A stretch of 64,000 nt of DNA, from the NCBI GenBank assembly GCA_035464655.1, contig DATHRZ010000009.1:1769-65768 (forward strand), given 5' to 3'. Positions 15,928-61,511 of this stretch are shown here, piece after piece. Every line of letters begins with the position of its first letter. The stretch's first letter is position 1. The notes under the pieces are model-generated. The model was not told where the DNA came from. It ran no database searches and was given only the letters and a program-made list of their open reading frames with translations. The translations under genes were made by a program, and so were the position numbers. The stretch comes from Gemmatimonadota bacterium. GTDB taxonomy: Bacteria > Gemmatimonadota > Gemmatimonadetes > Palauibacterales > Palauibacteraceae.

Positions 15928-15961
15928 CGGCAATGACCCTCCAGCGCGCGACTCGTCGCCG

Positions 15962-17956: not shown

Positions 17957-18486
17957 GGGGGCGCTGGCGGTGGCTCCTGCCGGTCGCGGCGGTTCCGTTT
18001 CTCGGCCTGCTGCTGTTCGGATTGACGCGGAATCCCGACTTCTTCCCGACCCCGCTCGTCGGACAACCGGCGCCGGACTGGCGGCTCGAGACCCTCGAAG
18101 GCGACACTCTCGCCCTGGGGGACCTGGACGGGAGAGTGGTGGTGTTGAACTTCTGGGCCTCGTGGTGTGTTCCCTGTCGGGCGGAGCATAACGTTCTGAT
18201 GCGCACGGCGAGCACGTGGCCGGACGACGACGTGCAGGTGATCGGGATCGTGTACGACGACTCGCGACGCAACGCCCTGCGCTTCCTGCGGGAGCTCGGC
18301 AACGACTGGCGTCACGTTCTGGATCCCGGCAGCAGGACGGCCATCGATTACGGCGTGCACGGCGTGCCCGAGACGTTCTTCGTCGGACGCGACGGGCGGG
18401 TCGGCGCCAAGCACATGGGACCCGTCACGTGGGACGTCATACAGCTCCACGTCGATTCGCTGCGGACGGCAGGAGCGGCGCCGTGA
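17953..18486 (+). CDS. ccmG: Thiol:disulfide interchange protein CcmG/DsbE (TlpA family)
   Basis: VVLNFWASWCVPC and YGVHGVPETFFV; GTG overlaps the ccmF stop. Confidence 0.9.
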   Translation: MRGRWRWLLPVAAVPFLGLLLFGLTRNPDFFPTPLVGQPAPDWRLETLEGDTLALGDLDGRVVVLNFWASWCVPCRAEHNVLMRTASTWPDDDVQVIGIVYDDSRRNALRFLRELGNDWRHVLDPGSRTAIDYGVHGVPETFFVGRDGRVGAKHMGPVTWDVIQLHVDSLRTAGAAP

Positions 18487-19040
18487 AGTCGGCTCGCTTC
18501 GCCGTATCCACGCTGATCCCGTCGCTCGCGATCGGGGCGCTGCTCATCGTGGCCGATGCCGCCGTGGCGCAGGAACCGATGCTGCCGGCCGAGCCGATCG
18601 GCGACTCGGCCGGGCTGACCGATCCGCGGGCGGCCGAGCTCGATGCCCGGGCGGCGGATATCGCGGCGCAACTGCGTTGTCCCGTGTGTAGCGGACAGTC
18701 GGTGCTCGAGTCGAACTCGGCCATCGCCCAGGAGATGCAGGAGGTGATCCGCGAACGGCTCGAACAGGGAGAAGGGGAGCGCGAGGTGCTCACCTATTTC
18801 CGGGGCGCGTACGGCGACTGGATCATCCTGCGGCCGCGTGCGACCGGATTGAACCTGCTGGTGTACGTATTGCCGGCGATCGCGTTGCTCGGCGGCTGCA
18901 TCTGGCTGGTCGTCGTTCTGCGGCGCTGGAGTGCCGCCGGGGCCGGCGGCGTCGGCGGATCGGGAGCTGCCGGGGAGCCCGACGGCGACCTGAGCGCCGA
19001 AGACGAAGCTTGGTTGCAGAGCAGCATCGGCGGCCGCTGA
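18483..19040 (+). CDS. ccmH: Cytochrome c biogenesis protein CcmH
   Basis: LRCPVCSGQSV.ESNS, YGDWIILRP and a C-terminal TM helix. Confidence 0.9.
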   Translation: MKSARFAVSTLIPSLAIGALLIVADAAVAQEPMLPAEPIGDSAGLTDPRAAELDARAADIAAQLRCPVCSGQSVLESNSAIAQEMQEVIRERLEQGEGEREVLTYFRGAYGDWIILRPRATGLNLLVYVLPAIALLGGCIWLVVVLRRWSAAGAGGVGGSGAAGEPDGDLSAEDEAWLQSSIGGR

Positions 19041-19082
19041 AGAAGTCGTTCGCGCGGGTGGAACCTCCGGTTCCGTTCGACG

Positions 19083-19088
19083 TATAAT
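19083..19088 (+). promoter_or_regulatory. -10 hexamer TATAAT upstream of the sigma factor gene
   Basis: Perfect TATAAT in the intergenic gap, 75 nt before the ATG. Confidence 0.5.
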
Positions 19089-19162
19089 GTCAGTTTTGGG
19101 TGTTTCGTCGGGGTGGCGGCGCCCCGGATCGGTCATCCGCCAAAGCTAAAGCAGGGAGTGTC

Positions 19163-20026
19163 ATGTTCTTCGATTCACGAGCCCTCGATTCCTTCGATCA
19201 GTACCTGCAGGACGTCGAGCGTTACCCCCTGATCGACGACCCGAAGGAAGAGCGCGAGATCGCGCGACGGGCGCGAGAGGGGGATAAGCAGGCGGCGGAA
19301 CGCCTCGTCACGGCGAACCTCCGTTTCGTGATCTCGTACGTCAAGAAGTACCAGGGGCGGGGTCTCAACCTCGCCGAGCTCGTGTGCATCGGTAACGAGG
19401 GGCTGCTGAAGGCGGTCAAGAAGTTCGATCCGGAGAAGGGGGTGAAGTTCATCTCCTACGCCGTCTGGTGGATCCGGCAGACCGTGCTGCAGGCGCTGGC
19501 CGAGCAGACGCGGTCGGTGCGCATTCCGCTCAACCAGAATTCGAACCTGGTGAAGCTGTCGCGCACCGAGACGGCGCTCACCCAGAAGCTCGGGCGCTCG
19601 CCGTCGGATCGCGAGATCGCCGACGAGATGAAGGAGCCCGTCGAGACGGTGCGCGCCCTGCGGCGCGTGGCCTCCGCCGAGCTCAGCCTCGACGCGCCAC
19701 TCGACAAGTCGGATCGCGACAGCGCGTCGTTCGGCGAGCGGTTCTCGGGCGCCGACGAGGGCGACATCGAGGTCGACGTCGAGGCGCAGGCGCGCCGCGA
19801 GTTCCTCGAGCGGATGTTCGAGACGTATCTGACGGAGCGCGAGCGCAAGATTCTCGTGCTCTACTACGGCCTCGACGACGGCGAGGAGATGACGCTGGAG
19901 CAGATCGGCGAGCTGCTGGGCGTAACCCGCGAGCGAATCCGGCAGATCCGCAACCGGGCGTTCGACAAGCTCAAGAACTCGACCGACGGCGAGGCGCTGG
20001 AAGGCTTCTGGCAGGCCTCGGCCTGA
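19163..20026 (+). CDS. RNA polymerase sigma-70 family factor (RpoD/RpoS-like, lacking region 1.1)
   Basis: DQYL..YPL (region 1.2), ANLRFV..KKY, GNEGLLKAV.KFDP.KG.KFISYAVWWIRQ and TLEQIG..GVTRERIRQI. Confidence 0.92.
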   Translation: MFFDSRALDSFDQYLQDVERYPLIDDPKEEREIARRAREGDKQAAERLVTANLRFVISYVKKYQGRGLNLAELVCIGNEGLLKAVKKFDPEKGVKFISYAVWWIRQTVLQALAEQTRSVRIPLNQNSNLVKLSRTETALTQKLGRSPSDREIADEMKEPVETVRALRRVASAELSLDAPLDKSDRDSASFGERFSGADEGDIEVDVEAQARREFLERMFETYLTERERKILVLYYGLDDGEEMTLEQIGELLGVTRERIRQIRNRAFDKLKNSTDGEALEGFWQASA

Positions 20027-20053
20027 CGCGGGTCCGCTCCGCGGCCCCGCGGC

Positions 20054-20497
20054 TTACTCGGTGCCGGGTCGGAGCTGGCGCCACGGGGCGACGAGCAGGA
20101 AGATCGCCACGGTGAGCACGGCGCTCACGACGCACCAGCGGCACCACGCTTCCAGCACGAACGCTTCGATGGCCGTCAGGTAAATCGAAAAGGCCAGGCC
20201 GGCCGTCGCCCCGAGGGCGATGAGACGGCCTGGCCGACTCGTTTCGAGACGCCCGGGCGCCATCACCAGCGCCAGCCCGAGCATCCCGGCGTACCAGGCG
20301 GCCCCCCAGCCGGATACGGGAACACCTAGAAACACGGCGTATTTCGACGTCTGGACGACCTCGCAGGCTCCCGTGCCGCACTGGATCATCCCGTAGTAGC
20401 CGAGGCTGTAGAGCAGCAGGTACGCCGAGACGAACAGTCCGACCAGGGCGAGGATCGCGACGATCCGGTAGCGCGTGACGTCGGTGACGACGGGCAC
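20054..20497 (-). CDS. Vitamin K epoxide reductase (VKOR) family protein
   Basis: CGTGACEVVQTSKY, GVP, four TM helices and WCRWC. Confidence 0.9.
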   Translation of the reverse strand: MPVVTDVTRYRIVAILALVGLFVSAYLLLYSLGYYGMIQCGTGACEVVQTSKYAVFLGVPVSGWGAAWYAGMLGLALVMAPGRLETSRPGRLIALGATAGLAFSIYLTAIEAFVLEAWCRWCVVSAVLTVAIFLLVAPWRQLRPGTE

Positions 20498-20498
20498 C

Positions 20499-21308
20499 TC
20501 AGTCGCCGCCCGTCGCCTCGTCCGCCGCCGTTTCGTCCGCCTGCTCCGCGGCGCGTGCCTGCTCGGCGGTCTCGAGCACGAGCTGCTCGAGGGCGGCGTA
20601 TCCGCGGTACTGGTTCATGTCGAGCGGCCGACCGTTCATGTAGAGCGTCGGGGTCGCGCCGACGCCGACGCTCGCGCCGTACCGTCGCGACGCTGCGATG
20701 TCTTCGAGATGCGGGCGCTCGGTGAGGCACTGCCGGAACGCGTCGATGTCGAGGCCGACGATCTCGGCGAGGTCGATGAACGCGGCGTTGGGGTTCGACT
20801 CGCCGTACCAGGCCTCGGTGCGGGCGTACAGCAGGTCGTGCATCTGCCAGAAGCGGCCCTGGTCCTCGGCGCAGCGCGCCGCCAGGGCCGGCGGCCACGA
20901 CACCTGCCCGAAGATCGGGAAGTCGTAGGCGACCCAGCGCAGAATCGCGTCGTCGCCCGTCGCATAGTTCTGGCGCAGCGATCTACCGAACTGCGCGTTG
21001 AAGCTCCGACACCCGGGGCAGCGGAAGTCCGCGAACTCGATGATCGTCACGGGAGCGTCGTCGGGCCCCATCGACACGCCGGCCGCACCACTGGCCTCCG
21101 CCTCCATGTCCGCCACGCTGATCGGCGGGTTGGCCGGCGCCCCGCCGCCCGCGATGCCCGCGTACCACAGGGCTCCCACGCCGACGATCGCCACGACGGC
21201 GAGAATGATGTAGAAGCCGGGTCCGGTCTTCGCCTTCGCGGCGCTTCCGGTGCTTTTCGGCCCAGCCTGCTTATTCCGCTGCTTCGAACTCTTCTTCGCC
21301 ACCGACAC
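20499..21308 (-). CDS. DsbA-family thioredoxin-fold protein, membrane anchored
   Basis: GPDDAPVTIIEFADFRCPGC, AARCAEDQGRFW.MHD.LY and GVGATPT. Confidence 0.88.
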   Translation of the reverse strand: MSVAKKSSKQRNKQAGPKSTGSAAKAKTGPGFYIILAVVAIVGVGALWYAGIAGGGAPANPPISVADMEAEASGAAGVSMGPDDAPVTIIEFADFRCPGCRSFNAQFGRSLRQNYATGDDAILRWVAYDFPIFGQVSWPPALAARCAEDQGRFWQMHDLLYARTEAWYGESNPNAAFIDLAEIVGLDIDAFRQCLTERPHLEDIAASRRYGASVGVGATPTLYMNGRPLDMNQYRGYAALEQLVLETAEQARAAEQADETAADEATGGD

Positions 21309-46505: not shown

Positions 46506-48458
<1,953 letters not shown>

Positions 48459-48551: not shown

Positions 48552-49514
48552 CTAGGGGGGAACGGCGGGGTCTTCCGGGTCTGGTGGCGGCTCGCTCGGC
48601 TCGATAGGGGTGACTTCGGCGGCGGCCGGGGGCTCGCGGACTTCCAGGGGCACATCCTCCGCCGCGGGTTCCTCGATGCCGAGGCGGCGGTCGAGGAAGG
48701 TGACCTGGCGCATGCGCTCGAGCAGGGTTTCGACGCGGCGGGCGTAGTAGGTGCTCGTGACGCCCGGGTGCCACTGGCTCGGGCGCGGCAGGGCTGCGGC
48801 TAGCATGGCCGCCTCACGTTGCGACAGCGCCGAGGCGGGCTTGCCGAAATAGTGGCGTCCGGCGGCCTCAGCGCCGTATATGCCGGGACCGAATTCCACC
48901 ACGTTCAGGTACAGTTCGAGGATTCGGTCCTTGGTCAGGTGCCCCTCGAGCTGCTTCGTCAGGATCACCTCTCGCCCTTTGCGCAACGGGTTGCGCGACG
49001 GGCTGAGCCACAGGTTCTTGGCGAGTTGCTGGGTGATCGTCGAGGCGCCGCGCGGTGCCTCCCTCTCTTCGATCGCCCGGCGAATCGCCTGCTCGATCTC
49101 GTGGGTCGAAAAACCCCCGTGCGAGAAGAATTCGAGGTCCTCGCCGACGATGACGGCCTCCTCGAGGTGCGGCGAGATCCGCGAGGCGGGTACCCACGTC
49201 CACGCGGGCGCGCGGCCCGACCGTTCGACGTACCGGTCGATGAACGCCGTGCGGTCGGGGTTGGCGTCGCGGAGCGCGGCCACGTCGGGCCAGGTCAACG
49301 CCTCGTACCCCACCCAGAGCGCTCCGAAGCCGACGAGCCCGGCCGCGAGGCGCCGGAGGATTCTTCGGCGCGCGGGCGCCGATGTCAGGGACTCGTCGGA
49401 ATCTCGCTCCCGTGACACGCCGTGCACATCTGCGGGTTCGCCCTCAGGAGCGTCTCCGCGTCGAAGTCCGGACCGTGCGGATCGATTCCGCGCCCACCGG
49501 TCGAGGAATGACAT
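48552..49514 (-). CDS. mtgA: Monofunctional peptidoglycan transglycosylase (start uncertain, likely downstream of 49514)
   Basis: GT51 motifs GED..FF.H.GF, RGASTITQQLAKNL, RK..E and ILELYLN.VEFG.GIYG.EAA..YF. Confidence 0.9.
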   Translation of the reverse strand: MSFLDRWARNRSARSGLRRGDAPEGEPADVHGVSRERDSDESLTSAPARRRILRRLAAGLVGFGALWVGYEALTWPDVAALRDANPDRTAFIDRYVERSGRAPAWTWVPASRISPHLEEAVIVGEDLEFFSHGGFSTHEIEQAIRRAIEEREAPRGASTITQQLAKNLWLSPSRNPLRKGREVILTKQLEGHLTKDRILELYLNVVEFGPGIYGAEAAGRHYFGKPASALSQREAAMLAAALPRPSQWHPGVTSTYYARRVETLLERMRQVTFLDRRLGIEEPAAEDVPLEVREPPAAAEVTPIEPSEPPPDPEDPAVPP

Positions 49515-49609
49515 GCGAGGCAATCTCGCTCGACGTGACACGAGGCGCACGTCTCGAGATTGAAGCGCGCCGCGGCCCCGTGGGGCAGCACCGTGATGTT
49601 GACGCGATC
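49385..49609 (-). other. Orphan 3-heme cytochrome module (74 codons) in the +1 frame directly after the stop of the 16-heme gene
   Basis: HGAAARFNLETCASCHVERDCLACH..PHGPDFD..CTACH; 30/57 identical without gaps to the C-terminus of the upstream gene; no signal peptide or SD. Confidence 0.8.
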
Positions 49610-51089
49610 AGGGGAGGATCTGCCTTGCCGCATGGCAGACGGCGCACGACTGGAGGCTGGCGTTCGACACGCGGTCCGGATCGAAGTCCGGACCGTGGGG
49701 ACTGATGCGAAGTCCCGACTTGGCGGAATGGCAACGCAGGCAGGATGTCTGCTGATGGCAGGACGAACAGGCCTCGAGACCCTGGCGCGCCGCCCGCCCG
49801 TGCTCGAACAACCAATCGGGCTGGGCATCGTGGAAGGCACCACCCGCGCCGTCGGCGACGCCGACCGTCACCCCGACGCCCTGATGACAGCTTCGACAGA
49901 ACGCCTCGGTCGAATGACAGTCAGTGCAGCTGGTCTGCACCGCGAACGCCTCCGCTCCGTGCCGCTGCAGGAAGTTCTCCGGATGATACCCGGACGTCGG
50001 CGAATTCATCGGTACCGCTGCGTCTCCCCGCGCGGACCGAGTCGGAACCGCGTCGTGACACGCTGCACATTCCCGTTCCACGTGGCACGAAGTGCAGTTC
50101 GGAAGATTGGCCGCCGCCGCAGCGGCATGCTGCGACCCGAAGTCCGGGATGTGGCCGGGCGCTCGCGTCCGCGCGACAGTGACGCCCGCGAGGCCCACCT
50201 CGGAGGGATCCGGCAGCGCGGCGATCTCGGGTATGCGGGCCTCTCCGTGGCACGTGCGGCAGCTCGGCTCGGCATGGCACGACGCGCACGATAGCGAACC
50301 CCCGACCACGCGCTTCGCGTGACTGAACTCCCAGCCGTCCTCCCGGTGGCTCTCGGGCTCCGGCCACTCTCCGGCCCGTCCCGCGAGCAGCTCTGCGACG
50401 CGCCGATCCGACCCAAGGGAACGGATCTCGTCGAGCTCGGCGGCATTCAGGTGGCAGCGGGCACAGCTCTCCTCGGCGTGACAGACCGCGCAACTCCCCA
50501 GCTCTGCTTCCGCCGCCTCCCCGTGCGACAGGATGAACGATTCGGCCGCGTGTGTAGGAGGTTCCGGAAATGCCGCGATACGCGAGACGGACAACTCCGG
50601 AACTTCGACCAGGATGGCGTGGCACTCTGCGCAGACGGCTTCGTCGGCCAGATGCTCCGGAGCCTCGTGTGCGTGACAGCTCACGCAGATCTCGGGTGCG
50701 GCCCGCGTGATCGCCATACTTGGCAGATCCGGCTGCAGCGGGCCGTGGCACCCGGCACAACGCAACTCTTCGTCGCCCGCGGCATGCACCGCCTCGACGT
50801 GCCGCACGTGTACGAACTCGAGGTTCGATGCGGTACGCGTCGGGGCCGCCCACGTCACGGTGTTCTCACGCTCCCCGTCGTGGCAGCGGATACAGTCGCG
50901 CGGTTCGACGGAGAAGTACCGATCTTCGTCGCCCTCCGGGATACCGGCATGGCAGCCGAGGCAGGTGGGGAACAGCCCGGCGTGCGCCTCGTGGGGAAAG
51001 CCGTCGGAATGGACCATCGAGACGACCACGCCGCCGGTCAATCCGATCGCGACCGATGTCAGCAGTGCCAGCACAATTCGCCGGATCAT
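49608..51089 (-). CDS. Multiheme c-type cytochrome, 16 CXXCH
   Basis: N-terminal signal/TM; 16 CXXCH counted; repeating H-x(8-9)-H..CXXCH-x4-5-CXXCH units; ATGA overlap with the porin gene. Confidence 0.92.
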   Translation of the reverse strand: MIRRIVLALLTSVAIGLTGGVVVSMVHSDGFPHEAHAGLFPTCLGCHAGIPEGDEDRYFSVEPRDCIRCHDGERENTVTWAAPTRTASNLEFVHVRHVEAVHAAGDEELRCAGCHGPLQPDLPSMAITRAAPEICVSCHAHEAPEHLADEAVCAECHAILVEVPELSVSRIAAFPEPPTHAAESFILSHGEAAEAELGSCAVCHAEESCARCHLNAAELDEIRSLGSDRRVAELLAGRAGEWPEPESHREDGWEFSHAKRVVGGSLSCASCHAEPSCRTCHGEARIPEIAALPDPSEVGLAGVTVARTRAPGHIPDFGSQHAAAAAANLPNCTSCHVERECAACHDAVPTRSARGDAAVPMNSPTSGYHPENFLQRHGAEAFAVQTSCTDCHSTEAFCRSCHQGVGVTVGVADGAGGAFHDAQPDWLFEHGRAARQGLEACSSCHQQTSCLRCHSAKSGLRISPHGPDFDPDRVSNASLQSCAVCHAARQILP

Positions 51090-52546
51090 CGCTGCCCCCC
51101 GGTGTCCGTTCCGAAGCTGTAGGAGAGCGAGCCGTATACGCGAACTTGTGTCCAGTCACCGTCCACCGGGCGCTCCTTAGCTTCGATCCAGTATACGGCG
51201 CCGCCGGCGTTCAACGACAACTCGCCAAGTCCGATTGCGCCGTCGACACCCACGCCCGACACGATCTGCTCGTTGAGCCGGAACTCGCCGAACGCCTGGG
51301 TGACCGTTCCGCGGAATGACAGATGTGTATGGTCGTCGAAGAAGCGGCCGAGACGAACATCACCACCGGAACGCGCGGCCCCGAAGCCTCGCTCACTATG
51401 GTACCCTCCCGAAGCAAACCACGGCCCGCCCCGCCAGTCGGCATTAGCGAGTATCCGCCAGCCGTCGTCCCGGAGGCCGGATTCGGCCGGCCCGGCACTC
51501 GTCTCCTCGTAGCTTCGGCGCGCGCCACCGGCCCGCAGCTGGAGACCGAGCGAAGGCGCGGACCAGGCCAGTGACAGGCGGCCCTCGTTGAAACCGACCG
51601 GGTTGAACGCGCCCCATATCGTCCAGAGCTCGAAGAACGGGGTATAGTGGCGCGCCTCGGCCGTGGCCTCGAGACGCGACACGACGGGCGTGTTGACGCG
51701 GAGGCGCAGATCGTTGAACTGCTCGTAGCTGAAGTCGTACTCGCCCGACGCTTCGACGACGGCCGGACCGAGGAACGCCCTGGCGTCGAGCGCAAGGCGC
51801 TCGGTGTACAGCGCGAGTCGATCGGTCCGGATCTCGCGCTGGTAACTGACGCGACCCGAGGCGATGTCGCCGATCCGGGCACCCGCTTCCGCCCCGAGAA
51901 TGAACCCCCGGTCGTCGGGCGCGAGGGGATCCGAGCGGGCCAGCAGGTCGCCCGAACGCGGGAAATTTAATCCGCGGGCGAGTGCCCATCCTCCGTACAC
52001 TTCCACCCAGAGCGGGTCCCATTTTCGCCACAGGAAGGCGCCGCCGTCGAAGTTGTAGTAGCCCAGCCCGTCGCGGCGGACCAGGCGACCGGCCCGGGCC
52101 CGGAACAGTGATCGGTCGTAGTCGAGGTAGGCGCTGACCGCCTCGAATTTCTCCGATGACAGCGGCCAGAAGTCGTCGGTCCCGTAGCGTCCTCGCACAT
52201 GTACGCGGGCGGAGAGCCCCTGGATCCCGCTCCAACCCGTGACTCGCGCCTCCTGCGTAGTGACGCCGACGGACTCGACCTCGCCGGCGCCGAACCAGCG
52301 ACAGAAATCGCCCTGCAGACAGGTGACGACGGTCCCGTCCGGGAGGCGGCGGCGGAGCGATGTCCCTTCCACCTCTTCCACCGGCAGGCTGTCCCTGACC
52401 AGAGGTCGGACCTCCAGATAGCTCCCTCCGACCGTGACTTCCGCGCGGTATCCCTGCCCCGCGACAGGCTCGGCCGTCACCAGCGCAAACGAGATCGAGC
52501 CCGCGGCGAGCACGATGCCGCGGCCCCACGAAGGCATCCCCGTCAT
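51086..52546 (-). CDS. Putative outer-membrane beta-barrel (porin of a porin-cytochrome complex)
   Basis: Signal peptide; about 20 amphipathic aromatic-ended strands (e.g. SAYLDYD, WVEVYGGW, GRLSLAW, VRVYGSLSYSF); flanked by multiheme genes. Confidence 0.75.
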   Translation of the reverse strand: MTGMPSWGRGIVLAAGSISFALVTAEPVAGQGYRAEVTVGGSYLEVRPLVRDSLPVEEVEGTSLRRRLPDGTVVTCLQGDFCRWFGAGEVESVGVTTQEARVTGWSGIQGLSARVHVRGRYGTDDFWPLSSEKFEAVSAYLDYDRSLFRARAGRLVRRDGLGYYNFDGGAFLWRKWDPLWVEVYGGWALARGLNFPRSGDLLARSDPLAPDDRGFILGAEAGARIGDIASGRVSYQREIRTDRLALYTERLALDARAFLGPAVVEASGEYDFSYEQFNDLRLRVNTPVVSRLEATAEARHYTPFFELWTIWGAFNPVGFNEGRLSLAWSAPSLGLQLRAGGARRSYEETSAGPAESGLRDDGWRILANADWRGGPWFASGGYHSERGFGAARSGGDVRLGRFFDDHTHLSFRGTVTQAFGEFRLNEQIVSGVGVDGAIGLGELSLNAGGAVYWIEAKERPVDGDWTQVRVYGSLSYSFGTDTGGQR

Positions 52547-53229
52547 GGCCGTAGCACCTCCGGGCTATTCAGCAGATGGCACTCGATACACGCTCCCGGT
52601 TGTTCGTGATCGCGCTGGCCGACGTGGCAGGAGACGCAGAAGTTCCGTTCATCCAGCATCGACGCGTAGTCCACGCCCTCGGCGACGTGGCACCCGGCCG
52701 TGCCGCAGCCGGCCAGGTCCACGTGCACGTCCTCCGCGTGGACGCCGATCGGTGGCTCCGAGTGGCAGGCCAGGCAGTCGCTCCCCGCCTTGTGGTGGTC
52801 GGTGTGACAGCTGGAGCACTGCGCCTGTGCCTTCAGAACCGCGTCGCCGGTGTGACACGAGGAGCACGAGACGCCTCCATGGATACCGTGATCGAACGTC
52901 AGCGAGCGATTACGCTCCACGTTGGACGGAAGTTGAAATGTCACGAGCCGCCGCAACGGTTCGGGAGCGATCTCTTCAGCCGCGTGACAGCGCTGACACT
53001 GTCCGTATCCGACATTCACGTGGTGGCAATCGGCGCACCACGTCCGATTCGACACCGTCGTCGCGCTACCGGTACTATGGCAGTCAGCACACTGATAGGC
53101 TGCGTGGACCTCATGCTGGAAGCGGGACAAGTCGGAGATTTCCTGCGCACGAGAAGCCGACGGCAGGACGAGTGCCACCAGCACTGCCGCTGAGCAACGT
53201 GTGACCACGAGCCGCCCGGGCGTGGTCAT
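52543..53229 (-). CDS. Periplasmic nonaheme cytochrome c (8 CXXCH + 1 CX4CH)
   Basis: ATG 53229 overlaps the cytb stop; signal peptide ending ASRA-Q; motifs counted. Confidence 0.9.
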
Positions 53230-54344
53230 GGTCCGCCTGCCGTCACATCGGGTACGGCTTCCGTATAGCCGAGATAGGTCATCACGAGGATGAAGATGAT
53301 CATGGCCCACCACACGTACTGCAGGTAATCGAGGGCGGCGTGCGCCTTCTCTCCTTCGCGCCGACGGTCGATGAACGGCACGAAGACGAGCACGACGGCC
53401 GCCAGGCCGAACCCGAGGATTCCCACGATCTCGCCCTCGATGCCGAGAATGTGCGCCGGCAAGTACTTCAACGTCTGGAACATGAACATGAAGTACCACT
53501 CCGGCTTGATTCCCGCGGGCGCCGACGCGAAGGGGTCCGCTTTCTCTCCCAACTCGGCCGGCAAATACGCCGCCAGCGCAGCGACGATCGCCAGTGCCGC
53601 CAACCAGCCCACGAGATCGCGGAGCAAGAAATGCGGCATGAAGGGTAGCGAGCGTCCAGTCCGTCCGCTCCGCTCGACGCTGGGGGGCGTGCTCATTCCG
53701 TGCTTCTGAACCAGGTAGACGTGGAGAGCGAGGAGCCCGACGATCAGCGTCGGCAGCACGGCGGCGTGGAAGGCGTAGAACCTGGTAAGCGTGGCACCAC
53801 TCACGTCGTCACCACCACGCAGGAGCCGCAGCATGCCTTCGCCGACCACCGGCACGACCCCGACGATCTGCGTACCGACACGCGTCGCAAAGTACGCTAG
53901 CTGATTCCACGGGAGAAGATAGCCGGTGAAGCCGAACCCCAGCGATATGACCAGTAGACCCGCCCCGGTGAGCCACGTGAGCTCGCGTGGGGGACGGTAC
54001 GCGCGCAGCAACAGAACGCTGAACATGTGCAGGAACAGCGTGGCGATCATCAGGTTTGCCGCCCAGTGGTGGATCGACCGGATCAGCCAGCCGAACTTCA
54101 CTTCGGTCATGATGAAGCGGATCGACTCGTACGCTTCGGATGCACTTGGACGGTAGTAGAACAGGAGCAGAATGCCGGTACCGACCTGGACGATGAACAG
54201 GAAGAGCGTCATCCCGCCCAGGTAGTACCAGATCGTGTGCTTGTGGACCGGAACTTCCTTCTTACGCGCGAGGCGCTCGAAGCCGGCCAGGCCGAGCCGG
54301 CTGTCGAACCACTCCCAGAGACGACCGCGCTCGCCGAAAGCCAT
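53226..54344 (-). CDS. Cytochrome b subunit of a Rieske/cytb (bc-type) complex
   Basis: [39 protein letters not shown] and the Qo motif PEWYF. Confidence 0.95.
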
Positions 54345-54823
54345 CAGCTTTCCTTGCTGACGATGATCTTGTCACCTTGCTCGACGACGGAGTACCTGGT
54401 CAGCGGTCTCGGGGGCGGCCCCTCGATGTTCGTCCCATTCAGATCGTAATGACCGTTGTGACACGCACACCAGATATGGCTGAGGTCATCGCGATATTGG
54501 ACGATGCAGTCCAGGTGGGTGCACATGCCGTCGAACGCCTTGAGCTCGCCCTTGGGAGTACGAACAATCATCCCGGGCCGGGAACCGAATCGGAAGATCT
54601 GGCCGCTGTTCGGGGGGATGTCGCGTGGACTGATGGGAAGCGTGACCTGCGATTCCGCGGACTCTTCCACCTCGGGCGGTACGAGGAAACGGATGATCGG
54701 GTACAGGACGGCGACACACAGGGCCCCGGCCCCCGTGCCAAGCATCCAGTTCAGAAACCGCCGGCGAATGAGGCCGGGCATGGCCGATCCGCTTTCGGGG
54801 GGACTTCCGTCGTGTTCGCTCAT
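54344..54823 (-). CDS. Rieske [2Fe-2S] protein
   Basis: RRRFL Tat anchor, CTHLDC and CACHNGHY boxes, and GPPPRPL. Confidence 0.95.
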
Positions 54824-56082
54824 GCCGATCCCAGTTGTCGAATCTTGGTCAAGAGCCCGAAGATGAGGACCAGAATCACGACGGTGGACGCCATCAGCCC
54901 GGTCCGGCGAGTCCGCAGCTCCTCGAACGCCGCCTCCCCGGCCCCGTATCCCGTCGCAGCGGCCTCCAAACCCACGGCAATGTGCGCCCGCACAGAGTCG
55001 ATCTTCGCCGTGTGCATGACGGCGCGCGCGCTCACGATCGCGGTCTGCACCCGCGTGAGCTCGAACAGCGCCTCGTCGACAGGCATCCCGGTGTGCTCCG
55101 CCTCGCGGAGGAGGGAGTCGGCTTGCGTGTGCACGGTATTGAGCGAGTTTACCATCGTCAGCATCTCCCGGGCGGCCTGTCCACCTTCGTCCGCGGCACT
55201 GTGACATCCCGAACCCGTACACGTGCTCCGTTCGTCCAGCCCGAGCAACTCGTCGTCGGCGGTCTCGATCGCATGGTTGCCGTGGCACGTTGCGCAGCCC
55301 GGGCGATCCAGCCCGTTGAACACGCTGTCGTGAGCGCTCATGGCGTAGTACTCGCCGATCTGGAAGTGGCACTCCGCACAGACTCTACCCACGGCGGAAT
55401 GCCCGGGCGGAACGGCGCCGTGGTTTCCGTGACAATCGTTGCAGACCGGCGAAGACAGATCACCCCGCTCGTCAAGCATGGCCCAGTGGATGCTCGAGCG
55501 GTATTCCTCGAGCTGGTTGGTGGGAATATCATACCCCGCCATGCGCTCCTCGTCGGCGTGACAGGCTCCGCACGTGTCGGGGACGTTGGCCGGGTGGACG
55601 GGCGACCCCGTCACACTGGCGGACTGGATACCGTGGGTCGAGTGGCAGTCGATGCACGTGGCCACATTGCGATCCCCTTGGACCAGCCGCTCGCCATGAC
55701 GCGACGTATAGTACGCCTCGACCTGGTCGATGCGGATGTCGGGATCGTAGGCGCGCATGAACTCCTGGTTCGAGTGGCAGCGACCGCACATTCCCGGCAC
55801 ACGTTGGCGAGCCGGGGCGGCTACCATGCCGGCATGAGCCGTCGACTCTGCATCCGACCGCGCGTCCCCACCGTGACAGCCCGTACACGTGAGCCCGGCC
55901 GCGAAGTGGACGTCGGATGCCCATCGCGCGGCGGGCTGGACGAGGTCGATCTCCTCGAGGGACAGGTGGCAGATCATGCACTGGTCCGTGACGCGCTGCT
56001 GCGACCGCGCCTCGCCCGGCCCGAGCGGGATGCTCGCGAGCGACGCGCAGATGATCCAGGTCGAAAGGCGGGCGACCCTCAT
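54820..56082 (-). CDS. Nonaheme cytochrome c (8 CXXCH + 1 CX4CH) with helical C-domain and C-terminal TM anchor
   Basis: Signal peptide; motifs counted; C-terminal LMASTVVILVLIFGLL; ATGA overlaps on both sides. Confidence 0.9.
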   Translation of the reverse strand: MRVARLSTWIICASLASIPLGPGEARSQQRVTDQCMICHLSLEEIDLVQPAARWASDVHFAAGLTCTGCHGGDARSDAESTAHAGMVAAPARQRVPGMCGRCHSNQEFMRAYDPDIRIDQVEAYYTSRHGERLVQGDRNVATCIDCHSTHGIQSASVTGSPVHPANVPDTCGACHADEERMAGYDIPTNQLEEYRSSIHWAMLDERGDLSSPVCNDCHGNHGAVPPGHSAVGRVCAECHFQIGEYYAMSAHDSVFNGLDRPGCATCHGNHAIETADDELLGLDERSTCTGSGCHSAADEGGQAAREMLTMVNSLNTVHTQADSLLREAEHTGMPVDEALFELTRVQTAIVSARAVMHTAKIDSVRAHIAVGLEAAATGYGAGEAAFEELRTRRTGLMASTVVILVLIFGLLTKIRQLGSA

Positions 56083-57959
56083 CCACTCGACCCCGTGGTC
56101 GGGACCAGGTGGCAGTTCATGCACGGCTGTCCAGGCTCATGTTCGATCATATCCTGATGGCACGTGGCGCAAAACTCCCGGGTCCGATCCATGCGAGAAT
56201 ACCGTGGCTCCGAGTGACAGCCGGAACCCGTGCATCCCCGGGTGTGAACGTCAGCCGTGTGAACGGGAGTCCGGTACTCGGCATGACAGGACGCGCAGGA
56301 CGCGGTCGCCTCGGGACGGTGGTGGTCCTCGTGGCAGGCCGCGCAGGAGGTCTGCACACTCTGCCGGATGCCACCCCCGTGGCAGTCGACGCAGCGCAGT
56401 TCGGTATGGGCATCATGATCGAACGGCAGGGCCCGCGGGCGGCGACCCTCCCCGACGCTCAACTCGAGCATCGTCGTGACCTGTCGCACCCGACCCAGTT
56501 CCACCTCGCCGTGGCAGCTTCCGCAGCCCTGCACTTGGGCGGTGTTCGTCGAATGGTGACAGGAGAAGCAGTCGCTCTGCGTTCTCACCGTGACCTCGCC
56601 GTGCTGACTGCGGTTCGAGTGGCACTCGGTGCACGCGACGGACGTGTGTTCCGCATGGCCGAAAGACACCTGCTGCGGCATCTCGAACGCGGCGGGTGCT
56701 GCGGTCGCATCCGCATGCAGGTACTGGAGCGCCGTCTGTGGAGCCCCTTCCGATGCGGCCAGCGTCACGACCGGATGCGGTGCCGGAGACGCACTTGTGG
56801 TCGCGGCGGCAACGGTCCGAGAAGCAGCGGCCGTCGCACCGGGAATGTCCGTGTGACAGGAGCCGCAGTCGTCACCGTCTCGTTCCCAGACGTGGGGCAG
56901 ATGGCACGACGTGCAGTCCTCGGTCACGTCCTGCGGAAGGCCGACGTGGAACGTGGTCAGTGTATCCGGGCGGGAGTGGCAGCCAGCGCCCGTGCACGAT
57001 TTGAGGGCCAGCTCGGGATTCTCCTGCTCATGCGGATTGTGACAGGCACCGCAACGGGCATCGTGCGGATCGGCGGCCGGGTCGTAGTCGGCCCACAGCG
57101 TCTCCATCTCGTGACACGAAGTGCACTGTCGAAGCCCCGGCGTGAGCGGTCCCGCCACCGAATCGATACTGGCGAGCATCGCCCGCTCAGCCGTGAACTC
57201 GTGGCAGGTGACGCAGTGCAGCCCCGTCTCCTCCGTCATGGCCCCGAGCACGATTTCCGTCGCGTCGGCCTCGTGGCACCCGACCTGACCGCACGTCTGA
57301 TCCGCGGGACGGAACTGGTGCACTTCCTGCCCGTGGCAGGTGACGCACTGGACGTCCGCCAGGGCGCTGGAGTCGGACTCGAGGTGCGCCACGTGTCCGG
57401 CGGTCGCGGCGATCTGACGCCAGTTGTCGGCCGGATCCGAAGCTATATGGCACTCCGCGCACACTTGCGTAGGAACGGGGGAATGCTCGCCGATCTCCTC
57501 GGGGCGGTCCTTGATCCACAGGTGGAGTTGGCGCGTGCTCGCAAATATCGACTGCTGGTGACAGTCGTGACAGCTCAGCTCCGAGTGGCCGCTTTCCGTA
57601 AAGCGCTGGTAGGCGGGCCCCATCACGTGGCAACCCGTGCAAAAGTCGTTGTCGTGCTGCATGTAGTCCCAGCTGACCACGCTGCCCGATACGACGAACA
57701 CAAGCACGATCGCGGCGCCTGCGGTCAGTCCGATCTGGAGCGGGCGTGTGCGTGAGCTCCACCAGGCGAGGAGCGCGTCGCGCTTCCGCACGGCAAGGAC
57801 GACAAGGGTGAGCCCAACGAGCGCCGCGAGGATGCCCCCGGCCATCTGCACACCCTGCGGCACGCTGAAGAACGCTCGCAGGAAGACCGCGAAGCCGCCG
57901 GGAAGGTCGGCTTCCGGGAGCTGCTGGGGCACGTCCTGCATCATGCCGTAACTCACCAT
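56079..57959 (-). CDS. 20-heme membrane cytochrome c with NapC/NirT-like N-terminal region (17 CXXCH + 3 CX4CH)
   Basis: Two N-terminal TM helices, then NDFCTGCHVM and SCHDCH (NapC-like spacing); Ala/Thr-rich linker before a C-terminal 9-heme module. Confidence 0.9.
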   Translation of the reverse strand: MVSYGMMQDVPQQLPEADLPGGFAVFLRAFFSVPQGVQMAGGILAALVGLTLVVLAVRKRDALLAWWSSRTRPLQIGLTAGAAIVLVFVVSGSVVSWDYMQHDNDFCTGCHVMGPAYQRFTESGHSELSCHDCHQQSIFASTRQLHLWIKDRPEEIGEHSPVPTQVCAECHIASDPADNWRQIAATAGHVAHLESDSSALADVQCVTCHGQEVHQFRPADQTCGQVGCHEADATEIVLGAMTEETGLHCVTCHEFTAERAMLASIDSVAGPLTPGLRQCTSCHEMETLWADYDPAADPHDARCGACHNPHEQENPELALKSCTGAGCHSRPDTLTTFHVGLPQDVTEDCTSCHLPHVWERDGDDCGSCHTDIPGATAAASRTVAAATTSASPAPHPVVTLAASEGAPQTALQYLHADATAAPAAFEMPQQVSFGHAEHTSVACTECHSNRSQHGEVTVRTQSDCFSCHHSTNTAQVQGCGSCHGEVELGRVRQVTTMLELSVGEGRRPRALPFDHDAHTELRCVDCHGGGIRQSVQTSCAACHEDHHRPEATASCASCHAEYRTPVHTADVHTRGCTGSGCHSEPRYSRMDRTREFCATCHQDMIEHEPGQPCMNCHLVPTTGSSG

Positions 57960-58033
57960 GGCGCCAGGACTCCCAACGTGCGAGTCGTAATTTTACGTGC
58001 GGGTGGTTCGCAACGGGTACAGGAGTATGGGGC

Positions 58034-58073
58034 GGACGGGGCCGTCCGGGAAAGTAGACTGACGGCCCCGTCC
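58034..58073. repeat. Perfect 13-bp inverted repeat GGACGGGGCCGTC-N14-GACGGCCCCGTCC between genes 1 and 2 of the cytochrome operon
   Basis: Read directly; no U-tract on the minus (coding) strand. Confidence 0.8.
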
Positions 58074-58092
58074 ATCGCTGGCGATACCCGAC

Positions 58093-59523
58093 CTAGCGCG
58101 CGATCTCGTTCAGCCGCCGCTCGATATCCGCCGGGAGAGTCCAGGAAGCGACACCGTACTCGTCCTGTACGGCCTGGATGCTTCCGAGCAACAGGGCCTC
58201 CGTGAGGAACGGGTTGTGGATCGCGGAACTCGTGATCTCGCCGAGACGCTGGTTGAACAGCGCACCCTCCGCGACGCTCAGAACGCCGTCCTCCGCGTCG
58301 AACTCCGTCTCGGGAACCTGCGCGAGCTGGGCGGCCAGCTCCGCCACCCGGTCCGCTATGCGCTCGGTCGCCGCGAGATACGCCGTGCGTGCCGAAGTCT
58401 CGTCACCGTGGCACTGGACGCAAGACTCGAACGACCGCTCGGTGACATCGCAGGTGCCGCCCGAGACCGGGACCCCCTGGGCGTCCAGGCACGGGATCGG
58501 CTCGAACAGATGACCCTTCGAGCTGAACACGAAGTCGCCGGTGAGCGGATCCGTGATCTCGCGCGCGAACACGTGACAGGTCGCGCACAGTTTCTCGTTC
58601 TGTGCGGAACCGTGTGTGCCACGGACGATATTCGTGTTGAAGTTCGGCGGGATCCAGCCGACGTCCTCCCCCAGCAGGAGCGGGCCCTGCGGCGAATGCG
58701 GTCCTCTCGAGTTGTCGATCTCCGGAACCGCGCGCTTGTGATGACACTTCATGCAGAGGTTCTCGCCGACGCTTGGCACGTCGATCGGGAAGCGGAGCTG
58801 GTGCTCCTGCGTAGCGTTGTGCGGATCGTGGCAGACCGCGCAGACGATCGGCAGATTCTCGGCCGAGCCCTTCTCGACGTAGTCGGCGTCGACGCCGAAA
58901 ACCTCGAGCACCCGCTTCGCCTCGTGGCATTCCTGGCACGCCTCACGTTCCCGGACCCCTTCGTTGCCTTCGAAGCCGTGCCGCGAATTCGCCCATTCGT
59001 CGACGAATCCGTGGTGCGAACCCTGGTGGCATTCCCCGCAACCGCTCGTCAGGTCCAGGCCGACCGCGATCGAGGCCAGGGGTTGCGACGCTTCGGGGTT
59101 CGACACATGACCGGCGCCTGGACCGTGGCAGCTCTCGCACTGAACGTCGTAGTAGCGCGTGTCCGCCGTGGCGACCCAGCCCGCCTCCCCCTCGGCCTCG
59201 TTTCCGTTTTCGCTGACCGTGTGACATCCCTCGCAGAAGGTCTGAGCGTGCGTGCTCGCCTGGAGCGTGTTCCACGCATCGGCGTGCGCGGTGAGCTCCC
59301 ACTCGCTCTGGGAGCCAATGTGACAGTTGCCACACACGGTGAAGTTCTCCGCCTGCGCGTCCTCCGTACCGTAGCCGAGGAAGCCCGACGCGCTCGCGGG
59401 CGGGTCATCGAACAGTGGGCGATCGACGAATATGGTCTCCGTGTCGGTGCATGCGGCGATCGCCATCAGCAGGACGGCACAGAGCGCTATTACAGCGGGG
59501 GTAACCGATCCAAATCTAATCAT
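58093..59523 (-). CDS. Nonaheme cytochrome c lipoprotein (c554/NrfA/OcwA-superfamily-like architecture)
   Basis: Lipobox AIAAC; 9 CXXCH; HADAW..L and CESCHGPG..H (c554-like); C-terminal helices with IHNP. Confidence 0.88.
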   Translation of the reverse strand: MIRFGSVTPAVIALCAVLLMAIAACTDTETIFVDRPLFDDPPASASGFLGYGTEDAQAENFTVCGNCHIGSQSEWELTAHADAWNTLQASTHAQTFCEGCHTVSENGNEAEGEAGWVATADTRYYDVQCESCHGPGAGHVSNPEASQPLASIAVGLDLTSGCGECHQGSHHGFVDEWANSRHGFEGNEGVREREACQECHEAKRVLEVFGVDADYVEKGSAENLPIVCAVCHDPHNATQEHQLRFPIDVPSVGENLCMKCHHKRAVPEIDNSRGPHSPQGPLLLGEDVGWIPPNFNTNIVRGTHGSAQNEKLCATCHVFAREITDPLTGDFVFSSKGHLFEPIPCLDAQGVPVSGGTCDVTERSFESCVQCHGDETSARTAYLAATERIADRVAELAAQLAQVPETEFDAEDGVLSVAEGALFNQRLGEITSSAIHNPFLTEALLLGSIQAVQDEYGVASWTLPADIERRLNEIAR

Positions 59524-59641
59524 GGGACTAAAGCCTTTCGCCGGCGCATGCCGGACCACGCCACGTCGACAGCCAGATCGGAGGGGGGGGCTGGCCATGG
59601 TGCGGGGCTAGTGGACCGTTCCAAGTTGCTACCTCTAATAA

Positions 59642-59670
59642 ATTGTACCGGGACGTAAGCGAGGTGTCAA
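59642..59670 (-). promoter_or_regulatory. Near-consensus sigma70 promoter TTGACA-17-TACAAT driving the multiheme operon
   Basis: Minus strand: TTGACA 59670-59665, 17-nt spacer, TACAAT 59647-59642; AT-rich downstream. Confidence 0.8.
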
Positions 59671-59688: not shown

Positions 59689-60330
59689 TCAAACACCGCG
59701 CATCGCGGGGTCCCAGACGAACTTGTGAAGCTGAAGCTGAAGGCGAACCGGGAGTCCGTCGGACAGGATCCACGCAGCCAGCGCGCGGCGCTCCATCCCC
59801 TCGAACTCGGGCGAGAAGTGAACCGTGAATCGCCCGAGGTCCCTCTCCTTTACCTGGCGTCTTGCCCACTCGTAGTCCTCGCGGTCGGCGATGACGAACT
59901 TCAGCTCATCGCGCGTCGGATCGAGGCGATCGAGATTCGCCCAGTCGTTCGCCTCGACCTCGCCGCTGCCGGGACACTTGAAGTCGACGATCTTCACGAC
60001 GGCAGGGGGGACACGGTCGACCGGTACGCTGCCGCTGGTCTCGCACAGCACCGTGTAGCCGGCGGCGAGCAGGGTGTCGGCGAGGGCGCCGACGTCCTTC
60101 TGCAGGAGCGGTTCACCGCCCGTGAGCTCGACCAGCCGACAGCCGGGACCGAGGCAACGGATCTCCGCCACGATCTCGTCGACGGTCATGTCGCGACCGC
60201 CGTGAAAGGAGTAGGCGGTATCGCACCAGGCGCAGCGCAGGTTGCAGCCGGTCGTGCGGACGAATACGCAGGGCCGCCCGGCGTAGCTCGACTCACCCTG
60301 GATAGAATGGAAGATCTCCGTGATCCGCAC
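59689..60330 (-). CDS. queE: 7-carboxy-7-deazaguanine synthase (radical SAM)
   Basis: EIFHSIQGE, G.PCVFVR.TGCNLRCAWCDT.Y, LTGGEPLLQ, ETSG and LQLQLHK..W. Confidence 0.9.
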   Translation of the reverse strand: MRITEIFHSIQGESSYAGRPCVFVRTTGCNLRCAWCDTAYSFHGGRDMTVDEIVAEIRCLGPGCRLVELTGGEPLLQKDVGALADTLLAAGYTVLCETSGSVPVDRVPPAVVKIVDFKCPGSGEVEANDWANLDRLDPTRDELKFVIADREDYEWARRQVKERDLGRFTVHFSPEFEGMERRALAAWILSDGLPVRLQLQLHKFVWDPAMRGV

Positions 60331-60336
60331 CGTCGG

Positions 60337-61329
60337 TCACACCACGAGCAGCGTACGCACGGCGCCCAGGCCGTACATGATCTGGCGCCAGCGGTCGTCG
60401 ACCAGGTTTCCGTGCAACAGGTGCCCCTGCGCGGTGCCGGCGATCACGGCCGAAGCGTCGCGCGGATTCGCGGCGAGGGCGGCCACGGGACTGGCGTCTC
60501 GCGTTCCATGCTCTTCCGACACCTCCCAGGTACGCCCGGAATCGAAACTCATCCACAGGCGGGCGTCGGCCTTCGCGGCCCGCTTCCCCCAGGTCGCGGG
60601 TGGGCCGTCGGCCGTGCCAAGCAGGAAGAGCGACTCCGTCGGGTGTGCGGGCGTCGACGCCGCGGTTAGAAAGCGGAGACAGTAGCGACCACCGAGTTCG
60701 CCGGCCGCAGGGCGCCAGTCGGCGCCTCGGTCGTGGCTGATGTAGAGCCCGCCCCCGGTCGCCGCGAAGACGCGGCTCCCGTCGCGCGGATCGACGGCGA
60801 TGTCATGAATGTCGTCGAACAGGCCCTCGTTGATCCCGATCCAGGTCGCACCGGCGTCGTCGCTGCGATAGGCACCCCCGATTTCGACACCGACGTACAC
60901 CCGGCTCGCGTCGTGCCGGTCGAAAGCGATCGCCTCGACGTGCGCGGCGCGTCCCCCGTACTCCGACCAGTCTTCCGTATCGGCCAGCGCCCCGAACCGG
61001 TCGAGCTCGGTCCACGTGGCGCCACCGTCGCGGGAAACGTGCAGTGCTGCCGGCTCCGTGCCCGCCAGCACGGAGCCCGACGGGGCGGCCGCGAGCGTCG
61101 TGAGCTTCGCGCCGTCGAGCCGCTCGGCCAGGGGCTCCCACGTGGCGCCCCCGTCGGCGCTGCGAAACAGGCCGCGCTCCGGGACGGCTGCGAGCACGGT
61201 GTCGCCCGAGCGAGCGAACGAACTCACCGCCTCGCCCTCGAACCCGCGACTCACGACCGTTCCCGACTTTTCTCCCTCGAGCCAGCGGATCAGGCAGAGC
61301 CCGTCGTCGCTCCCGACCAGTATACGCAT
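60337..61329 (-). CDS. BNR/Asp-box repeat beta-propeller protein
   Basis: Repeated S-x-D-x-G-x-T-W boxes (RSADGGATW, SRDGGATW, RSDDAGATW, SHDRGADW, SFDSGRTW). Confidence 0.85.
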   Translation of the reverse strand: MRILVGSDDGLCLIRWLEGEKSGTVVSRGFEGEAVSSFARSGDTVLAAVPERGLFRSADGGATWEPLAERLDGAKLTTLAAAPSGSVLAGTEPAALHVSRDGGATWTELDRFGALADTEDWSEYGGRAAHVEAIAFDRHDASRVYVGVEIGGAYRSDDAGATWIGINEGLFDDIHDIAVDPRDGSRVFAATGGGLYISHDRGADWRPAAGELGGRYCLRFLTAASTPAHPTESLFLLGTADGPPATWGKRAAKADARLWMSFDSGRTWEVSEEHGTRDASPVAALAANPRDASAVIAGTAQGHLLHGNLVDDRWRQIMYGLGAVRTLLVV

Positions 61330-61449
61330 ATCGTTGATTTCCGTAATCGTGTATCGTTCATGAACGGCAGAACCGACAACTCGCTTCGAGCCGCGAAAAC
61401 TCGCGGGATTCGCGCGGCATGGCAAGCCGGTCGCACGCGCTGAATTCGC

Positions 61450-61477
61450 TTGACTCTCCACCACCTGCGGGTAGTTT
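61450..61477 (+). promoter_or_regulatory. Possible promoter TTGACT-16-TAGTTT for the Gld-like ABC operon
   Basis: Hexamers in the divergent intergenic gap. Confidence 0.4.
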
Positions 61478-61511
61478 GCCCGCTCCTCCGGAACTTTCAT
61501 GACGAGGCCTC

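Follow-up and report, generated by a model that had tools for sequence, protein, structure and literature searches.

The window analysed here, 64,000 nucleotides of contig DATHRZ010000009.1 (assembly GCA_035464655.1), comes from a Gemmatimonadota bacterium, the lineage that an initial annotation made from the sequence had proposed. On its minus strand, between queE and mtgA, lies a cluster of eight co-oriented genes, here called g1 to g8, which probably encodes a trans-envelope porin-cytochrome electron conduit with two quinone-level enzymes, most likely working outward. In the direction of transcription, these are g1 (58093-59523), a lipoprotein cytochrome of 476 amino acids with nine CxxCH motifs, the lipobox AIAAC and a likeness to the OcwA/NrfA family; g2 (56079-57959), a membrane-anchored 20-heme cytochrome of 626 amino acids (17 CxxCH and three CX4CH motifs); g3 (54820-56082), a cytochrome of 420 amino acids with eight CxxCH motifs and one CX4CH, a signal peptide and a C-terminal anchor; g4 (54344-54823), a Rieske [2Fe-2S] subunit of 159 amino acids; g5 (53226-54344), a cytochrome b of 372 amino acids in which a b6-type part is fused with subunit IV; g6 (52543-53229), a periplasmic 9-heme cytochrome of 228 amino acids (eight CxxCH and one CX4CH); g7 (51086-52546), a predicted outer-membrane β-barrel of 486 amino acids and about 24 strands that has no heme motif; and g8 (49608-51089), a 16-heme cytochrome of 493 amino acids with 16 CxxCH motifs. 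All eight had been called in the initial annotation, which also counted 63 heme-binding motifs (9+20+9+9+16), a total that depends on counting the five CX4CH motifs. Over the remainder of the window, six-frame translations of open reading frames contain one CxxCH per 53,690 amino acids, and the density of heme motifs at the locus is far above this background. The five non-canonical motifs (positions 223, 322 and 576 of g2, 288 of g3 and 175 of g6) read CGQVGCH, CTGAGCH, CTGSGCH (twice) and CGTAGCH; all share the form C-x-x-x-G-C-H, which suggests that this heme has a conserved role in the structure.

The genes from g2 to g8 are translationally coupled, as had been described: stop and start codons overlap as ATGA at the g2/g3, g3/g4, g5/g6, g6/g7 and g7/g8 junctions and as TGATG at g4/g5, which argues for co-transcription, while g1 and g2 are 133 nucleotides apart. 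In four sediment metatranscriptome runs, short contigs with 0-1 mismatches cover all eight genes, and a zero-mismatch RNA contig (53138-53288) bridges g5 and g6, in line with the proposed co-transcription. We read these contigs as presence in the RNA libraries, compatible with co-transcription and too shallow to speak to expression level, induction or transcript structure.

The claim that the cluster encodes a Rieske/cytochrome b pair with a PEWY motif was confirmed, since all cofactor motifs are present and the Pfam matches lie above their cut-offs. g4 matches the Pfam Rieske family (44 bits) as well as TM_PetC, contains the cluster-binding motifs CTHLDC and CACHNGHY and begins with a signal of the twin-arginine translocation type (RRRF). 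g5 matches Cytochrome_B (178 bits) and Cytochrom_B_C, and its closest PDB sequences are those of cytochrome b6 (213 bits) and, across residues 245-325, of subunit IV. Its heme ligands are arranged as HX13H in helix B and HX14H in helix D, and PEWY stands at residue 281. g4 and g5 together thus have the cluster ligands, the two bis-histidine heme sites and the PEWY motif of a Rieske/cytochrome b complex. They do not form a cytochrome b6f complex in the strict sense: g5 is a fusion of 372 amino acids, a Tyr (TIWYYLGG) takes the position of the heme-ci cysteine, and the c subunit has nine hemes. Against the NCBIfam b6 model, g5 scored 244 bits, below the cut-off of 325, and it is not an ExtP equivalog (NF040969; 221.7 bits, cut-off 290). 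High-potential Rieske proteins have a Ser where box II of g4 (CACHNGHY) has a Gly, and this Gly points to a low-potential, menaquinol-type complex.

What would serve as the c subunit of this complex? g3 carries its CTGSGCH besides the eight CxxCH motifs and has a hydrophobic segment at residues 396-414. It belongs to a family of more than 3,000 members, and its homologs always accompany g4-g5 in relatives, Rokubacteria included. We read g3 as the c subunit, replacing cytochrome c1 or f. Compared with b6f and the b6c complexes of Firmicutes, g5 is likewise b6-type, with HX14H in helix D, PEWY and a Rieske partner anchored in the PetC manner; in contrast, its b6 and subunit IV parts are fused and the heme-ci cysteine is absent. 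The 9-heme, C-terminally anchored g3 differs in the same way from the cytochrome f, c1 or diheme c found in b6f and in multiheme-c Rieske complexes.

A second quinone interface, of the NapC/NirT type, had been claimed to lie beside the Rieske/cytochrome b module, and g2 indeed has an NrfH-like head with a conserved CxxCHxM. Two hydrophobic helices (39-57 and 76-94) are followed by CTGCHVM, and a stretch of about 70 residues (68-136) matches NrfH (PDB 2J7A_C, expectation value E 1.1e-8). The match to the NrfH model TIGR03153 (E 4.7e-11, 42.9 bits) is below its cut-off of 134, and that to Pfam Cytochrom_NNT (21.6) is below 24.1. CxxCHxM is kept in 45 membrane-anchored g2 homologs with 20 or 22 hemes. 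Reciprocal tblastn matches show homology between g6 and the C-terminal part of g2. Thus, g2 most likely combines an NrfH/NapC-like quinol-dehydrogenase head with a long periplasmic heme chain. g6 itself has a signal peptide, eight CxxCH motifs plus its CGTAGCH, and is very heme-dense, with 25 amino acids per heme.

The initial annotation had made its reading depend on whether the 486-residue g7 would model as a membrane β-barrel, and the AlphaFold2 model obtained with 40 homologs is a confident large barrel, with a predicted local distance difference test score (pLDDT) of 83.6, a predicted template modelling score of 0.73 and about 24 strands by DSSP; a plug domain is absent from this profile. 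A Foldseek search of the PDB with the model returned 298 matches at E<=0.001, and among the matches listed 50 of 50 are outer-membrane β-barrels, headed by the 24-strand ushers FimD and PapC. By sequence, the protein resembles no known barrel: (i) g7 has no Pfam or NCBIfam match at E<=0.01; (ii) Pfam searches with 40 family members at E<=1 found neither MtrB/PioB nor any other barrel family, with weak, unrelated matches for four members (E 0.05-0.28); (iii) Pfam gave nothing relevant for ten distant representatives; and (iv) a profile of the family run against all PDB sequences at E<=10 found nothing relevant, MtrB included among the sequences searched. g7 is classed, on its sequence, as an orphan family of predicted barrels with about 22-24 strands. 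Two invariant cysteines, C76 and C82 (about 52301-52321), lie in a short β-hairpin insert (residues ~56-90) near the N-terminal end of the barrel and could form a loop disulfide or contact a cytochrome partner.

A pore as wide as that of g7 is unlikely to stand open, so we expect a protein to occupy it. The modelled barrel, large and unplugged with a multiheme cytochrome gene alongside, has the features of the porin-cytochrome class, and the candidate occupant is g8. Among 72 related loci with enough sequence, almost all of them belonging to Gemmatimonadota, a g8 homolog lies directly downstream of the barrel in all 72, an obligate pairing. Sixteen hemes were found in 52 of 57 g8 homologs, and all 16 heme motifs are invariant in an alignment of 37 sequences. 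Each homolog has an N-terminal signal or anchor and none has a lipobox. The multiheme lipoprotein that had been predicted for the unit does exist, but it is the 9-heme g1 and not the 16-heme g8, which lacks a lipobox cysteine.

In g1, the lipobox reads AIAAC|TDTE, and relatives retain this cysteine with T/V-D after it. The protein matches Pfam Cytochrome_C554 (24.9, cut-off 20.8) and C7. With phmmer, it matches OcwA (PDB 6I5B) at E 1.1e-9 over residues 52-167 only, and the multiheme cytochrome 6QVM at E 3.3e-8 over residues 85-408. In Thermincola potens, OcwA acts as the terminal reductase at the surface; the paper on it cites 6I5B (PMC6703420). Like OcwA, g1 has nine CxxCH motifs, a c554-like N-terminal part and detectable sequence similarity; unlike OcwA, it is a lipoprotein of a diderm bacterium, and the similarity is limited to the residues given. 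Its sequence contains no CxxCK or other recognisable catalytic-heme motif. g1 is a candidate terminal reductase on the surface side.

The cluster is conserved across the phylum. At 50% identity, the g7 family falls into 414 clusters, and it occurs in 195 species-representative genomes; among those listed, almost all are labelled Gemmatimonadota, and a few are labelled Eisenbacteria or are probably mis-binned. Of the 72 loci, 36 have a g6-like gene directly upstream of the barrel and 5 have a g1-like one there (together 41/72). Many relatives (L071 6660-9968; L012 6316-9954; L014, L015 and L020) have instead a giant 19-heme cytochrome of 950-1,230 amino acids upstream of the barrel, which replaces the 9-heme g6, with 22-heme NrfH-like and 11-heme proteins further upstream. 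The Rieske/cytochrome b module was counted in 80 fetched loci, and an orthologous g3-g4-g5 module lies within 10 kilobases (kb) of the barrel in 45 of them. In 28 loci the module lies downstream of g8, in 8 it is upstream of g2 and in 4 it is upstream of g6 without a full g2 in view; 2 loci have it on the opposite strand, and 3 share the window's placement between g2 and g6. Since the module is near the barrel in 45/80 loci in at least four arrangements, its position points to selection on linkage and not to an inherited order. The gene order of the window recurs in L001, L003, L004 and the metagenome contigs L081-L084. In a Candidatus Rokubacteria metagenome-assembled genome (MAG; L085, 6817-13283), the 9-heme cytochrome of the module is 47% identical to that of the window, class I cytochromes c, small c7-type cytochromes and an NNT-like multiheme protein flank the module, a molybdopterin oxidoreductase is near, and no barrel lies within the 13 kb fetched, of which only 5.0 kb are downstream.

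How would electrons travel through such a system? We propose that menaquinol would be oxidised at the Qo site of the b6-type g4-g5 complex, the Rieske cluster passing electrons to the membrane-anchored 9-heme g3, and that by a second route menaquinol would be oxidised at the NrfH-like head of the 20-heme g2. Periplasmic heme chains, made up of g3, the g2 tail and g6, the 9-heme homolog of that tail, would carry the electrons onward to the 16-heme g8, which would sit in the unplugged g7 barrel as MtrA sits in MtrB. Electrons would end at the OcwA-like g1, which would be exposed at the surface, and from there reach an extracellular acceptor, which may be Fe(III)/Mn(IV) minerals or humic substances; flow through the Rieske/cytochrome b complex may conserve energy by a Q cycle. 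We infer that outward flow is the most likely direction because box II of the Rieske protein (CACHNGHY) looks low-potential, the quinol dehydrogenase is of the NrfH type and the terminal protein resembles OcwA.

The same parts could work in reverse, a possibility that we regard as rather unlikely. Electrons from Fe(II), Mn(II) or reduced humics outside the cell, or from a partner cell, would then pass through g1, g8 and g7 into the periplasm, from where they would run downhill to an oxidase or uphill through a reversed Rieske/cytochrome b complex that reduces quinone. MtoAB/PioAB and the petI bc1 complex of Acidithiobacillus are precedents for inward flow. Porin-cytochrome systems are bidirectional, CymA/CbcL-type enzymes occur in reducers and oxidisers alike (PMC6295460), bc1 complexes belong to the electron chain of Fe(II) oxidisers (PMC5566968), Cyc2-type markers of iron oxidation have been reported from Gemmatimonadota MAGs (PMC9769843), and relatives of the window come from soils and oxic-anoxic sediments. 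However, the Gly-type CACHNGHY and the NrfH-like quinol dehydrogenase fit quinol oxidation better, and the OcwA-like terminal protein is of a kind known as a reductase (PMC6703420).

The initial annotation did not recognise the arrangement as a characterised system, yet a published precedent exists in the extHIJKLMNOPQS cluster of Geobacter sulfurreducens (GSU2940-GSU2930), which encodes a porin-like protein, multiheme cytochromes, a Rieske protein and a cytochrome b and responds to Fe(III) (PMC5877670). Each is one conserved cluster with a lipoprotein among its cytochromes; in Geobacter, ExtO is the Rieske protein, and ExtP plus ExtQ make up the cytochrome b. The genes for ExtM-ExtN-ExtO-ExtP-ExtQ run in the order cytochrome, cytochrome, Rieske, cytochrome b, in parallel with g2-g3-g4-g5. 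The ExtP (222 bits, cut-off 290) and ExtQ models both match g5, and there are weak matches of g3 and g1 to models of Ext cytochromes. The differences are several: g7 matches no NCBIfam or Pfam model, whereas ExtI is like phosphate-selective porins and smaller (45 kDa); the rhodanese ExtH and the selenoprotein ExtKL have no counterpart in the cluster described here; the cytochrome b is fused here and split in Geobacter; and the heme counts are 9/20/9/9/16 versus 5/12/10/4.

Several observations weigh against an outward conduit across the outer membrane. By sequence, g7 stands outside the MtrB/PioB family (PF11854, TIGR03509) and shows no tie to any other characterised conduit porin. The AlphaFold2 model of g8 is poor (pLDDT 64.8) and Foldseek found no fold match for it; that one cytochrome would enter the barrel and another would reach the surface is proposed from the sequences. 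RNA depth at the locus is 2-3 and similar over queE, and DNA carry-over is possible. Proteins of the OcwA family also reduce nitrite and hydroxylamine, and OcwA relatives in diderms may be periplasmic enzymes (PMC6703420, PMC7829351). In Geobacter, deletion of ExtI had an effect on selenite and tellurite reduction but none on that of Fe(III) citrate, and ExtI has been proposed as a selenite/tellurite channel (PMC5877670).

The last points would suit a periplasmic respiration of a soluble substrate, in which the barrel would be a channel, g1 a periplasm-facing catalytic reductase of the NrfA/OTR/OcwA type that receives its electrons from the quinol-oxidising modules, and no cytochrome would cross the outer membrane. 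g1 does belong to the NrfA/c554/octaheme-related group that includes the nitrite- and hydroxylamine-reducing OcwA, g3 and g1 give weak NCBIfam matches to proteins of the Ext selenite/tellurite operon, and the extI phenotype lies in selenite and tellurite, not in Fe(III) citrate. But an unplugged barrel of about 24 strands would be far oversized for an oxyanion, substrate channels having 16-18 strands; the barrel is strictly paired with the 16-heme protein and not with g1 (72/72 loci); 45-63 hemes would be excessive for feeding a periplasmic enzyme; and g1 lacks the catalytic-heme motifs that were looked for. We consider this explanation very improbable.

A further difficulty concerns the bond between the conduit and the Rieske/cytochrome b module. 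Where at least 8 kb are available to either side of the barrel (26 loci), 14 loci carry the module and 12 lack it nearby. It occurs in Rokubacteria too, where the DNA retrieved, which reaches no more than 5.0 kb downstream, contains no barrel, so conduit and module are perhaps not obligate partners. Two independent systems might then simply be adjacent: g3-g4-g5 as a general variant of complex III for aerobic or denitrifying respiration, and g2, g6, g7, g8 and g1 as a self-sufficient conduit with g2 as the sole quinol oxidase. Such a separation would agree with the occurrence of the g1-g2-g6-g7-g8 cassette without the module in many loci, with the class I cytochromes c that accompany the Rokubacteria module, and with the appearance of the window module as an insertion between g2 and g6. 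We nevertheless think it unlikely, since every junction from g2 to g8 overlaps by 1-4 nucleotides, which implies that the module is translated from the same message, since the module remains within 10 kb of the barrel in 45/80 loci despite repeated rearrangement, and since the same association exists in Geobacter. The single unit of the initial annotation is a lineage-specific arrangement of separable modules, and the barrel/16-heme pair is its invariant part.

How does the proposed conduit compare with other porin-cytochrome systems? With MtrCAB of Shewanella (6R2Q), MtoAB and PioAB it would share an unplugged barrel, an adjacent multiheme cytochrome and an outer lipoprotein multiheme cytochrome, and with MtrCAB also a quinol dehydrogenase of the NapC/NirT family, as in CymA. 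In contrast, g7 has no detectable sequence similarity to MtrB/PioB and about 24 predicted strands instead of 26; the candidate barrel partner has 16 hemes and not 10; the lipoprotein is OcwA-like and not MtrC/OmcA-like; and quinol modules, one of them a Rieske/cytochrome b complex, lie in the same operon. The PCC3/PCC4 systems (PMC5566968) and the Geobacter Pcc (OmaB-OmbB-OmcB), compared here by description, similarly have a porin and periplasmic and extracellular high-heme cytochromes, to which a b-type redox protein of the inner membrane is added; a single locus then covers the entire envelope. In PCC3/PCC4, however, the inner-membrane protein has five helices and two HX13H motifs and is neither Rieske/cytochrome b nor NrfH-like, and the hosts are mainly Proteobacteria. 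For Gemmatimonadota MAGs, literature searches found only generic mentions of multiheme cytochromes, Cyc2, iron-cycling genes and FeGenie results (PMC9769843, PMC8478452) and counts of ImcH/CbcL homologs (PMC6295460), none of them a description of this cluster. The cluster is set apart from the known systems by a barrel of an orphan family with a constant 16-heme partner, by a lipoprotein resembling OcwA, and by a b6-type cytochrome b that is fused and has a 9-heme subunit. That these amount to a conduit specific to the Gemmatimonadota lineage, in which a non-MtrB barrel with an obligate 16-heme insert would be wired to a Rieske/b6-type Q cycle, is a tentative proposal, on balance more doubtful than assured.

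Upstream of g1, a promoter-like TTGACA-17 nt-TACAAT (59642..59670, minus strand) matches the consensus at 11 of 12 positions; it is a consensus match only, in a region that has 3 such sites versus 1.3 expected. The site is kept in the 87%-identical relative L081 and not in L005. Between g1 and g2, an intercistronic stem-loop of 13-14 base pairs (58034..58073, minus strand) has a folding energy of -29.9 kcal/mol (z -4.8), equalled by none of 200 shuffles. L081 has a hairpin of other sequence at the same place (4466-4505; -39.4 kcal/mol, z -6.2), so that the position of this GC-rich element is conserved and its sequence is not, with compensatory changes. Because no T-run follows the hairpin, an mRNA-stabilising or attenuating element is more likely than a full terminator. 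It may set the ratio of g1 to g2-g8, for example as a processing or stability element that raises the level of the g1 lipoprotein. Terminator-like sites inside the genes are at chance level (4 found, 4.1 expected).

The interval originally assigned to the operon began at 49385, but its first ~220 nucleotides (49385-49607) lie outside g8 and hold a gene remnant, the 3' end of a second 16-heme gene (49385..49582, minus strand) with three CxxCH motifs and neither start codon nor signal, in a frame that differs from that of g8. At the DNA level, positions 49994-49601 of the window align with the end of the 16-heme gene of the related locus L005, whereas 49582-49008 align with L005 20797-21419, that is, with the 3' end of a second 16-heme gene plus mtgA, 7.9 kb further on. 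The L005 segment that the window lacks (12902-20796), placed there between the first cluster and mtgA, is a complete tandem second cluster, with a lipoprotein 9-heme cytochrome, another multiheme cytochrome, a 20-heme cytochrome, a barrel and a 16-heme cytochrome, of whose 16-heme gene only the last ~65 codons are left in the window. Two heme motifs of the remnant are gone in L081 and a stop codon has appeared in it, while the overlapping frame of mtgA remains open. mtgA, encoding a monofunctional transglycosylase (48552-49514, minus strand), has its apparent start (MSFLDR...) inside the remnant in another frame, and it overlaps the intact 3' end of the 16-heme gene in L005 too; the remnant probably survives because of this overlap. 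From these alignments we conclude that 49385-49582 is a decaying deletion relic of a second conduit cluster.

Two other explanations of this segment were rejected. A programmed +1 frameshift would extend g8 to a 19-heme isoform, but no g8 homolog has more than 18 hemes against the prevailing 16, and the additional module is what remains of another gene's 3' end, intact in L005 and decaying in L081. A ninth gene is equally untenable for a remnant that has no start codon or signal and decays in L081.

The cluster is flanked by an acetyl-CoA synthetase gene (46506-48458, plus strand) beyond mtgA and, on the other side, queE (59689-60330, minus strand), encoding QueE, and a gene for a BNR/sortilin-like repeat protein (60337-61500, minus strand), all classed as ordinary housekeeping genes. 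The flanking genes are syntenic with those of L081, and the base composition, at 0.64-0.69 GC, falls little below the mean of the window, which gives no hint of a mobile island.

Gemmatimonadota are among the most abundant bacteria of soils and sediments; their physiology is poorly known, and electroactivity is not a recognised trait of the phylum. The main interest of the cluster lies in this host phylum and in the possible coupling to a Q cycle. If our reading is true, a whole phylum would join the respirers or oxidisers of minerals and humic substances, and g7 would represent a new structural family of outer-membrane conduit barrels, whose pairing with the 16-heme cytochrome makes a compact candidate part for bioelectrochemical engineering. 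Extracellular electron transfer coupled to a Q cycle would conserve more energy than the CymA- or ImcH-type quinol oxidases of model organisms allow. With this cluster, nature would also provide a way to test if extracellular transfer can be coupled to the Q cycle of a Rieske/cytochrome b complex, and the same question may be asked of the Ext cluster of Geobacter.

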